Below, piece by piece: positions 22,265-40,381 of a stretch of 46,784 nt of DNA. A program made the position numbers and the translations under genes. The notes below the pieces were generated by a model. It had not been told where the DNA came from. It ran no database searches and worked only from the letters and a program-made list of their open reading frames with translations. The stretch comes from a virus (lineage: Duplodnaviria > Caudoviricetes). The stretch spans positions 1 to 46,784 of IMG/VR virus record IMGVR_UViG_3300012231_000016. One strand, 5' to 3'. The first letter of the stretch is position 1, and every line of letters begins with the position of its first letter.

Positions 22265-24316
22265 ATGGGCGCTGCTGTACTGACCGAAGAGAAGGTCAAG
22301 CGCGGCCGGGATCAGCTGATGAGCATCGGTGAGCGACTGGCCGACAACTGGCCAGAGCTGACCGAAGGACTCGACGGCGTCGACAAGTCCTACATGGGCT
22401 TGCTCCTGCAGAACCAGGAAGACCACCTCCGGACCGTTCGTCCGCAGGTGACCTTCCGGGATAAGTCGCTGCAGGAAACCACCAAGATCCTCAACATTGG
22501 TGGCTTCGACAAGTTCGCTTCGTAATCGGGAAGGCGAACTAGGTACACAGACCGGATGTCTGTCCATGTTCCCGATCATCCGGGCGGTGTACCCGAATCT
22601 TGTACACAAAACGGGATTCGTAAAATCTGGTGAACTGCTGGAACCCCCTAAAGCTCCACCCCAACAGCGTGGCTGGTAACGGCGAGCGCGACTGGTTGAA
22701 AAGCGTGGAGATGGTACAATGGGAAATCAGCATCCAAGCTCCCGGGCGACCGGGTGAAGGTTCAACGACTACCAGGAGTAACCTGTGGATTGGAAGACCG
22801 CTATTCGTCGAGGCCACCAGCGAGCGTTCGCTGCGCGGTTGCGGCGGGATCGTGCGGTCGATGGCAAGAAGTACAGTCACTTGTACAACGTGCTCGGGAT
22901 GACTACGGCACAAATCGCAGCCAGAGAGGGCTGTACCCCGGAGAACATCCAGCGGAAGTTAGGTTGGCGAGTATTGCGCATCTCAAATGAGCAAGTGACA
23001 AGTGACATCCAATCCGTGATTCGAAGAATTCGATCAGCACTCAGGTGAAACTGGCACGAGCTCCAGACACTACGTACACGTAGTGATGATATAGTCTGTT
23101 CTGCAGGGAAACCTGCAGCAGTCTCGGATAAAGAGCCGAGACGTTAACAACAAGCGTGGCCAACGAGATCTGCTCGGTTCAGCCGATGCAGGGTCCGTCG
23201 TCGATGGTGTTCTACCTCGACTACCTCGTCGGCACGACGAAGGGTTCGACTGCGACCGGCACCGCGTACTTCGATGCGCGCACCGGTCCGATCAACGACG
23301 AGTTCTACCCCTCGGGCACCGTTCCGTCTGAGAACCCAACCAGCACCATCGGCACGATCAACGTCGCGAAGGCGATCGGGGTCGCGCACACGCCGCTGCG
23401 TCCTGGTTCGATCTCGGGCACCATTCTCGAAGAGACGCCGGGTTCCACGACGTTCTACGATGATGGCAACGGCACCCTGATCCTGTCGGCGACGACCTAC
23501 GTCGCGACGGGTACGGTCGTCTATGGCACGGGCATCTTCACGTTCACGCCTGCGTCCGGCAAGACGATCTCGGCCAACGGTCTCACGGTGTCGTACGACT
23601 ACGACACGGAGGCCAACGATGACGTTCCCGCGATCGACCTGCAGCTCACGGCTGCGACGATCCAGGCGGAGGTTCGCAAGCTCCGTGCTCGGTGGTCGAT
23701 GGAAGCGGCGCAGAACCTGGAGAAGCTCCACGGCATCAACGCGGAGTCGGAGCTGGTCGGCGTGCTCGCCGAGGTCATCAAGGCCTCGATCGACCGTCGC
23801 ATCGTAAACGACATCTACGCGTTCGCCAACGCGGGCTCCGTCCAGTGGGACAAGGCTGCTCCGGCTGGTGTTCCGTACGCGGAGCACAAGCTCACTCTGA
23901 TCGACGCACTCATCCAGAACTCGACGCAGGTCTACCGCGCGACGAAGCGCGCCAAGACGAACTGGGTGCTCTGCGGCACGGACATCTGCAACGTCATCGA
24001 ATCGCTGCCGATGTTCAAGGCGGATGCGGACGGTCTCCGTGCGAGCTCGGCAACGGGCGCGCGCAAGATCGGCATGCTGCAGAACCGCTGGGTCATCATC
24101 GAGGATCCGTTCTTCCCGTCCGATCGGTGGCTGACCGGCTACCGCGGTGAGAGCTTCCTCGACAGCGGGTATGTGTACGCGCCGTACATTCCGCTGGTCA
24201 CCACGCAGACGATCTACCTCGACGACTTCATGGGCCGCAAGGGTGCCATGACGCAGTTCGGTGTGAAGAGCACGAACTCGAACATGTTCGCGACGGGGCA
24301 GATCCTGAACGTGTGA
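22265..24316 (+). CDS. major capsid protein (T4 gp23-like), split into three exons: 22265-22519, 22569-22600, 23155-24316 (482 aa after splicing)
   Basis: Joined exons total 1449 nt and read ...LLLQNQ...GGFDKFA|FPIIRAVYPNL|VANEICSVQPMQGPSSMVFYLD...RKLRARWSMEAAQNL..HGINAESEL...GYVYAPYIPL, all gp23-family motifs. Confidence 0.92.
22520..22568 (+). other. 49-nt core-less group-I-like mini-intron in the MCP gene
   Basis: Preceded by U and ends in G; internal guide 22525-22540 pairs with the ligated exon junction over 16 nt with a single G.U at the 5' splice site; contains an in-frame stop and shifts frame; removal restores the conserved MCP motif. Confidence 0.8.
22601..23154 (+). ncRNA. group I self-splicing intron (IA-like, ORF in P7.1 loop)
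   Basis: P1 CGAATCU/GGATTCG with U.G; P element AACTGCTGGAA; Q element AATCAGCATCCAAG; R element GTTCAACGACTA; P3 TCTGG/CCAGA; P8 CACTACG/CGTAGTG; S element GATATAGTC; P9 CTGCAGG-GAAA-CCTGCAG; second hairpin GTCTCGG/CCGAGAC; terminal G23154; splicing gives a CT|C Leu codon. Confidence 0.93.
22785..23048 (+). CDS. intron-encoded 87-aa protein: HTH plus DUF559/Vsr-like endonuclease C-terminal remnant
   Basis: AGGAG RBS and GTG; LYNVLGMTTAQIAAREGCTPENIQRKL (HTH-like); RDR...LGWRVLRISNEQV..DI..VI..I (DUF559 tail); no catalytic DF..EVDG segment. Confidence 0.6.
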   Translation: MDWKTAIRRGHQRAFAARLRRDRAVDGKKYSHLYNVLGMTTAQIAAREGCTPENIQRKLGWRVLRISNEQVTSDIQSVIRRIRSALR

Positions 24317-24398
24317 CGATCTGTCAGGTCTCTTTCCGCACACATCTTGACCTCCCGTGGCTGCTGCCTACCCTGGTGGTGGTCGCGGGAGGGTCATC

Positions 24399-25223
24399 GT
24401 GCTCAGGTGCTTGTTCTGTAAGTCCAAGCCGATCCGCGCCAGCGCCAACTTCTTCTGCGGGCATTCCTGTGCTCGCTCTTGGAAGATCGCCAACCCGAAG
24501 CGCGCTGGTCCGTTTGTGCGTGGTCTCTGTCGAGAGTGCGGCCGCGCGTGGAAGGCGAAGTACCGCAAGGAATTCTGTGGACGTAGCTGCGCGGCGCTTA
24601 ACTGGCGTCGTGCTGCGCGTGAGGCAGTTCCAGTGAAGCGTTGCATCCGCTGCCGCGCCAAACTGCGCTACGACACTTCGCACAAGCTCAAGTTCTGCTC
24701 TCTCACGTGCGCGACGAGATGGCAGTGGGATCGCGGAGACAAAAAGAAGTGGCGTACCCATAAGCCACTCTGCCTTAGCTGCAAGAAGCGCCGTGGTAGT
24801 CACAGCGGGGCGAGGTTCTGCTCGCACGCTTGTGCTGGTACGTATCACACGACCAGTCTGCTTCGTCCCGCGGTCGCCTCGAAGTGCCGATTCCTCGGCA
24901 TCCAGATGCGCTCGGCGTACGAGGTGGCTCTTGCGCGGCAGCTGCGAAAGGCCAGGATCAAGTTCACGTACGAGTCGAAGACGTTCCGCGGCAGGGTTGG
25001 CAGCCGTTCGTGGAACTACACACCAGACTTCTATCTCCCTGAGTACGATCGGTACTTGGAGGTGAAGTCGTGGTACACGTGGAAGATCGGCAGGTCTAGA
25101 CTGGTACCCATCTTGCACCGCATTCGTGAGCGCGGCATCAAGATCCTGCTGGTTACTGGGTCAAAGATAGAGCGCATGCGGAAAGAGTCCGTCCTCGACG
25201 TTCTGCGGCTCAAGTCTGAGTAG
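24399..25223 (+). CDS. free-standing putative homing endonuclease: CxxC...FCxxxC repeats and a PD-(D/E)xK nuclease domain
   Basis: GGAGG RBS and GTG24399; four FC[GS]xxCA repeats; MRSAYE...FTYES..F....YTPDFYLPEYDRYLEVK. Confidence 0.8.
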   Translation: MLRCLFCKSKPIRASANFFCGHSCARSWKIANPKRAGPFVRGLCRECGRAWKAKYRKEFCGRSCAALNWRRAAREAVPVKRCIRCRAKLRYDTSHKLKFCSLTCATRWQWDRGDKKKWRTHKPLCLSCKKRRGSHSGARFCSHACAGTYHTTSLLRPAVASKCRFLGIQMRSAYEVALARQLRKARIKFTYESKTFRGRVGSRSWNYTPDFYLPEYDRYLEVKSWYTWKIGRSRLVPILHRIRERGIKILLVTGSKIERMRKESVLDVLRLKSE

Positions 25224-38827: not shown

Positions 38828-40381
38828 ATGCCTAACTCTCCGGGCGTATACCCACGTGAGATCGATCTGAGCCAGTACGCGGCTCGCTTCGCGTCTTCCG
38901 TGGTCGGCATGGTCGGACCTGCTACTCGCGGGCCGATGAACGAGGCAACGTACGTCACGAATCAAGAGCAGTTCGTCAGCACCTTCGGCGCCCCGATGAC
39001 GGGCGTCGGCGCCGTACCGTACGCGACGCATGCAGGGATTCAGTTCCTGCGCGAGGGCAGCCAGCTCTGGTTCGTTCGCATCGAGTCCGGCTCGAATGCC
39101 GCAGTCGCGTCCAGCGCCAACGTGCTCGACTCCAATGCAGGGGTCGTGTTCTCGGCGGCGGCCGCGACGGCTGGTACGTGGGGCAACTACACGACGAGCG
39201 GTACGTTCGTGGATGGCCTGCAGGTCACGATCACTGACCCGCTCGACTCCACGTACAACAGCACGCGCTTCCGTCTCATCGTCGTGTTCAAGGGTCAGCA
39301 GGTCGAGTCCTTCGACAATCTGACCTGGGCGTCTTCGTCGGACGCGAACTACTTCACCACGCGGGTCAACGGCGTCTCGCAGTACCTGACGCTGGCCGTG
39401 GGTGGAGCTTCGAACAAGCCGGCGAACACGACCTACAACCTGTCGGGCGGAACGAACGGAACGACCGGGCTTGCGGATGCCGACTACATCGGCACCGCGA
39501 CGAGCGTCGCTCGCACGGGCCTGCAGATCTTCGAAGACAAGGACCTCGCGGAGATCAACATCCTCGCGATTCCTGGTGCTTCGCGGACCGTCATGCAGGC
39601 AGGCGTCGCGATGGCTGAGCTGCGCCAGGACTGCATGATGCTCATCGACCCGCCTGTGGGCATGACGAGCGTCGCGGCGGTCCGCAACTGGGCCAACGGC
39701 ACGGACGGCAGCGGCAACTCCTTCAACTCCAGCTTCGCCGCCGTCTACTGGCCGTGGATTGAGTACTTCGACAACTACAGCGGCCAGTACGTGTGGACCC
39801 CTCCATCCGGCTGGATCGCTGGTGTAGTGGCGCTGACGGACAAGGTGGCGGAGCCGTGGTTCGCTCCGGCTGGGCTCGTTCGTGGCATCCTCAAGACGGC
39901 GAATCGCATTGAGTACAGCCCGACCTTCGGAGAGCGCGAGCTGCTCGCCAATCCTGGCGAGATCGTGAATCCGATCGTCAAGAAGGCCGGCTACGGCATC
40001 GTCGTCTGGGGTCAGCACACGGCCCAGCGGATCACCTCTGCGCTCGATCGCATCAACGTCCGGCGCATGCTGATCCTGGCCGAGAAGACGATCGCGAAGT
40101 CGATCGAGTTCCTCGTATTCGAGCCGAACGATCCGGTGACTTGGCGGCGCTTCACGAACATCGTGAATCCTGTCCTCGCCTCGATCCAGGCGCGTCGTGG
40201 TTTGGAGCAGTTCCAGGTCATCTGTGATGCGTCGACCAACACGAACCTTCTGCGCGATCAGAACACGATGCGCGGGATCCTGTTGCTGAAGCCGACGAAG
40301 ACCGCGGAAGTGATCAACCTCGACTTCGTGCTCACCAGCGCCGGTGCTTCGTTCAGCGAAGTGCTGTCGTCGGTGGCCTGA
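38828..40381 (+). CDS. contractile tail sheath protein
   Basis: SPGVYPREIDLS, GPATRGP, PPSG.IAG, PWFAPAG..RG, VWGQ.T, LDRINVRR, FEPND..TW. Confidence 0.95.
   Translation: MPNSPGVYPREIDLSQYAARFASSVVGMVGPATRGPMNEATYVTNQEQFVSTFGAPMTGVGAVPYATHAGIQFLREGSQLWFVRIESGSNAAVASSANVLDSNAGVVFSAAAATAGTWGNYTTSGTFVDGLQVTITDPLDSTYNSTRFRLIVVFKGQQVESFDNLTWASSSDANYFTTRVNGVSQYLTLAVGGASNKPANTTYNLSGGTNGTTGLADADYIGTATSVARTGLQIFEDKDLAEINILAIPGASRTVMQAGVAMAELRQDCMMLIDPPVGMTSVAAVRNWANGTDGSGNSFNSSFAAVYWPWIEYFDNYSGQYVWTPPSGWIAGVVALTDKVAEPWFAPAGLVRGILKTANRIEYSPTFGERELLANPGEIVNPIVKKAGYGIVVWGQHTAQRITSALDRINVRRMLILAEKTIAKSIEFLVFEPNDPVTWRRFTNIVNPVLASIQARRGLEQFQVICDASTNTNLLRDQNTMRGILLLKPTKTAEVINLDFVLTSAGASFSEVLSSVA

Follow-up and report, generated by a model that had tools for sequence, protein, structure and literature searches.

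The major capsid gene of the virus fragment studied here raises the question of how a reading frame closed by a 49-nt insert is restored, when this insert carries the splice-site signals of a group I intron and no catalytic core. The window, i.e. the whole stretch of DNA analysed (46,784 nucleotides), is a T4-like myovirus fragment from a viral record about 22% complete, and at least half of it is present in four freshwater-sediment metagenome runs, two of which are possibly its source. The host gene is of the T4 gp23 type: its exon 3 matches phrog_138 (major head protein; E=9e-49), PF07068 was matched on its homologues, a prohead protease gene is located upstream and a tail sheath gene further on. 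The gene comprises the following parts.

22265..22519, plus strand: exon 1, whose N-terminal part aligns to intact homologues and whose last base is the U of the mini-intron U·G pair
22520..22568, plus strand: mini-intron of 49 nt, core-less, with an in-frame stop at 22523-25 and G as final base
22569..22600, plus strand: micro-exon of 32 nt, covered in turn by P10 of the mini-intron (22569-76), hairpin H (22577-93) and P1 of the large intron (22594-600)
22601..23154, plus strand: large group I intron of 554 nt with a full core and terminal G23154
23155..24316, plus strand: exon 3 of the capsid gene, carrying the phrog_138 match and, on homologues, PF07068

Excision of exactly 49 and 554 nt leaves a single frame that is open over 482 codons and closed by a stop. 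Retention of the insert leads to a stop at codon 87, while skipping of the 32-nt exon shifts the frame. Seven frame-keeping registers were tried per junction, and one alone combines the conserved peptide with an exon-final U and an intron-final G. The motif across the micro-exon is gap-free in all full-length homologues aligned (106/106). The insert is real DNA and no assembly error, since a second assembly (L205) and two further runs agree over the element: 4428 bases of L205 were matched with two differences, both outside the element, and the contigs of runs X3 (22320-22596) and X4 (22447-22613) show no differences over it. An RNA contig of a relative (run X16; 7 differences in 199 positions) starts matching exactly at 23155, the predicted start of exon 3; such a contig cannot discriminate a spliced from an intron-less transcript. 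No RNA run extends over the mini-intron. Runs X7, X9, X10 and X12, each with a small share of the window, do not reach it either, which does not speak for its absence from them.

It is very improbable that the 49 bases simply stay unspliced, being crossed by the ribosome through a +1 shift or hop, bypassed by a restart at the ATG at 22566, or left in a dead gene. The frame of exon 2 is open through the whole element (22521-22568), with this ATG directly before the micro-exon, the stop lies one codon after exon 1, and the translational gap of T4 gene 60 is reportedly 50 nt, near the 49 nt here. However, a shift would insert 16 residues into the motif that is gap-free in all homologues. Bypass of the T4 gene 60 type uses a take-off codon and a matching landing codon on either side of a stop, and no TCG or GCT landing codon was found in that frame. 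Crossing by the ribosome also leaves the P1 and P10 pairings and the U and G ends unexplained, and the capsid is essential, with the element unchanged in the second assembly and both further runs. Restart at the ATG would yield a capsid protein lacking its first 85 residues.

Three pairings connect the mini-intron with the flanking exons.

22512..22540, plus strand: P1 of the mini-intron, formed by exon 22512-19 and 22533-40 (mean pair probability 0.89); the U22519·G22533 pair marks the 5′ splice site
22525..22576, plus strand: P10 of the mini-intron, formed by 22525-32 and exon 22569-76 with 8/8 Watson-Crick pairs, in register with P1
22542..22593, plus strand: hairpin H, the proposed tether, 22542-58 paired with exon 22577-93, with a G-C pair enclosed by two A·G mismatches

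The element consists of a 5-nt leader, a 16-nt guide, one A, the 17-nt strand of H and a 10-nt tail ending in G. The guide is complementary to the joined exon ends (8/8 in P10; 8 bp including the U·G pair in P1). Thus, the hallmarks of group I splice sites, an 8-bp P1 with U·G, terminal G22568 and an in-register P10, are all present. The catalytic core P3-P9 is absent: none of six group I core motifs was found in the 49 nt (0/6), nor any P7-like motif, while the neighbour has these motifs, and the RF00028 match begins only at 22591. The guide forms 8/8 pairs with exon 2 and a single wobble in its first eight positions with exon 3, an inability that, judged from the complementarity, disfavours skipping of the micro-exon. 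The guard against skipping that the initial annotation had ascribed to the pairings around the micro-exon is better explained by this difference in P10; H itself is probably of importance for accurate splicing. The two introns share the end C-A-N-G, and a 2-bp P9.0-like contact would be possible through it, a weak indication. The mini-intron was also considered as a duplicate of the large one; this was rejected, the similarity being not significant (543 of 3000 shuffles as good). The in-frame stop sits in the loop of the mini-intron P1 (22520-22525). A terminating ribosome would open this P1 and should halt short of H at 22542, and therefore translation may compete with splicing.

The neighbouring intron contains what the insert lacks. 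Its RF00028 match (22591-23118; 51.6 bits at a cut-off of 50) is the sole one in the record, and its P3-P9 core, P1 with U·G and terminal G are those of a group I intron. Among canonical phage group I introns (RF00028) the 554-nt neighbour is therefore a member, whereas the 49-nt element is devoid of P3-P9.

22594..22620, plus strand: P1 of the large intron, 7 bp up to U22600·G22614 plus a 3-bp extension; no P2
22621-25, plus strand: A-rich linker to P3, following P1
22765-71/23092-97 and 23101-18, plus strand: P7 and P9 of the core
22785..23048, plus strand: 87-codon open reading frame (DUF559, E=2e-4, residues 55-86; weak helix-turn-helix, E=0.007)

Judged from these matches, the 87-codon frame is probably a decayed remnant of a homing endonuclease. 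A relative in run X12 (window positions 23088-23229) shares the 3′ end of the large intron on one low-depth contig, and because of its differences at 23141 and 23155, wobbles replace Watson-Crick pairs in the last hairpin and in P10.

The complementarities described in the initial annotation are exact (22542-48/22587-93, 22552-58/22577-83, 22602-07/22587-92 and 22547-52/22558-63), and the loop of H does contain the 3′ splice site of the mini-intron and the P10 strand. H is in fact longer than its two segments, with 15 of 17 positions forming Watson-Crick pairs in one register; the central G-C of what would be a 3x3 internal loop also pairs. This match was reached by none of 20,000 shuffles, nor by any of 200,000 in which the exon segment was kept fixed; 14 pairs or more are seen at six places of the genome (10 of 9,345 windows), H itself being one. 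By energy alone H is less striking, since 42 of 20,000 shuffles equal it, as do 961 of the 46,723 windows of this GC-rich genome. Among control pairs of tandem full-core introns, none of four has a comparable match between intron and middle exon: 52, 973, 755 and 127 of 1000 shuffles were as good, compared with 0/1000 for H, with the intron boundaries of these controls placed by eye or by model ends.

H begins 1 nt past P1 of the mini-intron and ends flush with P10 and the large P1, so that P10, H and the large P1 tile the micro-exon end to end with no overlap. In the predicted fold of the precursor, H (pair probability 0.998/0.994), the mini-intron P1 (0.89) and the large P1 (0.99) are all present together; the minimum-energy fold holds H and the large P1 jointly, and the links between neighbours are 1 nt (mini-intron P1 to H) and 0 nt (H to large P1). 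The region as a whole is more stable than shuffled sequence (z = -2.7; 0/200 shuffles as stable). Folding was computed at equilibrium and pseudoknot-free, with no protein, ligand or kinetics, and P10 of the mini-intron, which crosses H as a pseudoknot, is left unscored by the program.

These features make it moderately probable that H is a tether that sets the core-less P1 of the mini-intron beside the core of its neighbour, which likely excises the mini-intron. The sequence provides the boundaries, P1, P10, H, the lack of a core and the end-to-end coverage; folding provides the side-by-side stems; catalysis, docking and excision order we infer. H would loop out 51 bases between both P1 stems, and the base of the mini-intron P1 would be connected with the A-rich linker into P3 through a single nucleotide and two neighbouring base pairs. 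Such an order of stems would imitate P1-P2-P2.1-P3 of a normal intron, H and the large P1 occupying the positions of P2 and P2.1 in the standard layout. The neighbouring core would dock the mini-intron P1 and cut at U22519, after which the guide, now free, would form P10 with the exon. The result would be helices of 16 bp (P1/P10) and 17 bp (H), joined at both ends by different strands, with G22568 entering the G site. The large intron would splice itself afterwards. The order of excision may not be fixed, and H stacked on the large P1 could retain the excised ribozyme long enough for it to act second.

The geometry was examined in a coarse model of rigid A-form helices, based on fibre coordinates and containing no ribozyme. 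Three of 13 arm lengths (15-17 bp) permit both end links, the observed 16 among them. The U·G pair has its minor groove, the side contacted by the group I core, turned about 174 degrees away from H. For the fuller reading we would give about an even chance: the element would be a non-autonomous group I intron, a 49-nt passenger with its own guide and an antisense tether on a double-crossover-like platform, spliced in cis, such that one core turns over twice per mRNA.

The same geometry bears on the possibility that a group I core, that of the neighbour or of another phage intron acting in trans, splices the mini-intron, with H being a by-product of an inverted duplication or merely presenting the 3′ splice site. 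This appears rather unlikely. A 15/17 match does resemble an inverted copy of the exon sequence, most of the genome is unseen, and PaSSU-type introns have a similar pairing, with a neighbouring core not named in the accessible part of their description (PMC3160393). A by-product is nevertheless at odds with the flush position of H, 1 nt after the mini-intron P1 and level with P10 and the large P1, with arm lengths within the 3-of-13 in-phase window, and with the guide and H strands, whose order is swapped compared with what one inverted duplicate of the joined exons would give. Other cores may exist in the phage, because the record covers only about 22% of it.

The tether has two difficulties of its own. 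After excision, the piece would still be bound to the mRNA through 16 and 15 paired bases (-27 and -25 kcal/mol), and release is a problem that, according to the predicted pairings, would be left to ribosomes or refolding. Furthermore, if the large intron left first and dissociated, a dead-end transcript would result, and no safeguard against this was found at the locus.

The initial annotation had proposed that mutually exclusive pairings around the micro-exon act as a switch, for which two further helices were named.

22587..22607, plus strand: 6-bp helix linking the exon to the large-intron start, 22587-92 paired with 22602-07; probability 0.000-0.002
22542..22565, plus strand: internal hairpin of the mini-intron, 22547-52/22558-63 plus two pairs, which excludes H; probability 0.000 in the precursor

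Both of these helices do exclude H, and exclusivity holds to that extent; H (22577-93) and the large P1 (22594-600) only abut and are compatible. The exon/large-intron helix, supposed to compete with the large P1, is at chance level: 237 and 1,993 of 20,000 shuffles (1-10%) and 3,103 of 46,740 windows (6.6%) do as well. Its probability is 0.000 in the precursor and 0.002 after removal of the mini-intron, where the P1 fold exceeds the best fold containing it by 2.8 kcal/mol in stability. The internal hairpin, put forward as a third option, is likewise matched by chance (931 and 2,447 of 20,000 randomisations of the free positions, 5-12%), statistics that do not demand a function. It is the minimum-energy fold solely in nascent RNA ending at 22566-22580. 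Its probability is 0.56 without the 5′ exon and 0.0 once the exon holds the guide, and P10 combined with it is 6.9 kcal/mol weaker than H. According to these folds, it could be at most a transient or product-release structure.

That the order of excision is fixed by alternation among H, the exon/large-intron helix and the internal hairpin is hence a distinctly unlikely explanation. It draws on the mutual exclusion with H, on the internal hairpin being the predicted fold of nascent RNA up to 22580, on the gap of only 2.8 kcal/mol between the exon/large-intron fold and the P1 fold after mini-intron removal, and on the benefit that a core-less intron would have from leaving first. Against these points, both alternatives remain at chance level, with probabilities of at most 0.002 where their action is needed, and the P10 and internal hairpin combination is weaker than H by the margin given above. 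Equilibrium folding of the precursor and of singly spliced RNA gave no two exclusive folds of similar stability. H does not overlap the large P1; it would sequester the competitor of this P1 and shield the latter, which is the opposite of a lock that lets the mini-intron leave first. An ordering switch would matter less than a tether, and it is unsupported here.

The closest published architecture is that of the PaSSU-type fungal introns. The accessible part of PMC3160393 describes SSU rRNA introns of 63-78 nt with P1, P7, P10 and a middle/3′-exon pairing (PM). Like the element studied here, they are tiny and core-depleted, with a G·U pair in P1, a P10, and PM pairing comparable to H with its 15/17 pairs. 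They differ, as far as described there, in their location in nuclear rRNA (position 1516), terminal U, a proposed P7 of their own and reported self-splicing, whereas the phage element has 49 nt, lies in a capsid mRNA, ends with G, lacks P7 and has a full intron 32 nt downstream. The retention of P1, P10 and the middle/3′-exon pairing in these introns would agree with the mini element splicing itself or with a protein, as was described for the 67-nt PaSSU intron, H being its PM pairing. This is highly improbable, given the absence of a P7-like motif, the length of only 49 nt and the terminal G instead of U; even PaSSU splicing required about 300 nt of flanking RNA, according to the part of the report available (PMC3160393).

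Other known systems share parts of the arrangement. Tandem introns around a short exon, as covered in the sections available of PMC10136302, include Twort orf142 (23 nt) and Coxiella 23S rRNA (34 nt); two sets of group I splice sites there surround a micro-exon, and the two introns can act as one ribozyme or use the distal splice site. These are paired group I introns of named subgroups whose reported cooperation ends in skipping, whereas one partner is core-less in the capsid gene and skipping would break the frame. Exon skipping and a small exon are also described for Bacillus phages (phiNIT1 rNDP large subunit and SIOphi) in the accessible part of PMC11878797; the small exon of phiNIT1 was rejected as a precedent, both of its introns scoring as cores. 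Engineered trans-excision ribozymes, in which a group I core removes short non-catalytic segments of 28-100 nt by means of P1, P9.0 and P10, are artificial, act in trans and carry the guide on the ribozyme, as outlined in the portion of PMC4094466 available; at this locus the guide would be on the passenger and the core in cis. The portions available of PMC3984707, PMC3590771 and bioRxiv 2021.05.01.442275 contain nothing on such an arrangement. In the literature searched, outside which most subscription papers lie, we found no account of a naturally occurring group I intron that lacks its core and is spliced by an adjacent intron.

Relatives of the element were sought by several routes. The gap pattern gave one match in viral contigs, in an unrelated gene. 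The pattern of an intron before a micro-exon gave none in viral contigs, none in genome contigs and two in metagenomes, i.e. the own contig and a 99.96% identical assembly. A blastn search with the 126-nt region against cultured phages returned five records, all with short matches (E >= 0.1). Among 203 loci searched by tblastn, capsid matches were obtained in 202, with an intron-type break at the own locus alone. A divergent homologue was thus not found in viral, metagenome or genome contigs, nor among the cultured phages. A detector for P1 and P10 found no similar element upstream of related cores among the 262 and 202 contexts listed. The mini element itself ranked joint first of five matches in the window and first among the 202 listed core contexts, with a score of 15, although the detector is loose, controls scoring 14 and 17. 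The tied match, at 39755-39822, lies within the open tail-sheath frame and was taken as chance.

Full introns occupy the same motif in the gp23-like genes of L463, L344, the L502 group and L583, and in these genes full-core introns alone were found by Rfam, by eye and by the detector. One to four full group I introns are present in such genes at L583 (G004), L344/L584 (G003), L463/L587 (G005) and L502, two of which carry micro-exons of about 17-18 nt. The tandem full introns at this motif flank exons of about 17-18 and 63 nt. Since other phages have full group I introns at this capsid motif, some of them in tandem, loss of the core by the upstream member of such a pair is a plausible origin of the mini-intron. 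Two other loci show different features: at L581 (G001), another capsid-like gene, identified by eye and located on the minus strand from about 1570, carries several group I introns from its fourth codon, and at L147 a frame change occurs at about 2950 inside a gp23-like gene.

If the tether is real, a group I intron can lose its entire catalytic core and survive as the passenger of a neighbour. Nature would then have moved from self-splicing in the direction of a separate RNA machine that does the splicing, a step we have so far met only in engineered systems. Spliceozymes are said to be such engineered systems, in which a group I core removes a short segment without a catalytic part. The locus is compact (about 700 nt) and would then provide a design rule, a guide plus an in-phase tether, for the removal of a second intron by one ribozyme. 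It may also hint at the role of the unexplained PM pairing in fungal mini-introns. Inserts of this kind escape Rfam and split essential phage genes in annotation.

Directly after the capsid gene, positions 24357-25223 contain a free-standing endonuclease open reading frame (phrog_9019, 945 and 1271; Phage_endo_I weak). Its product could mobilise the two-intron allele in trans.
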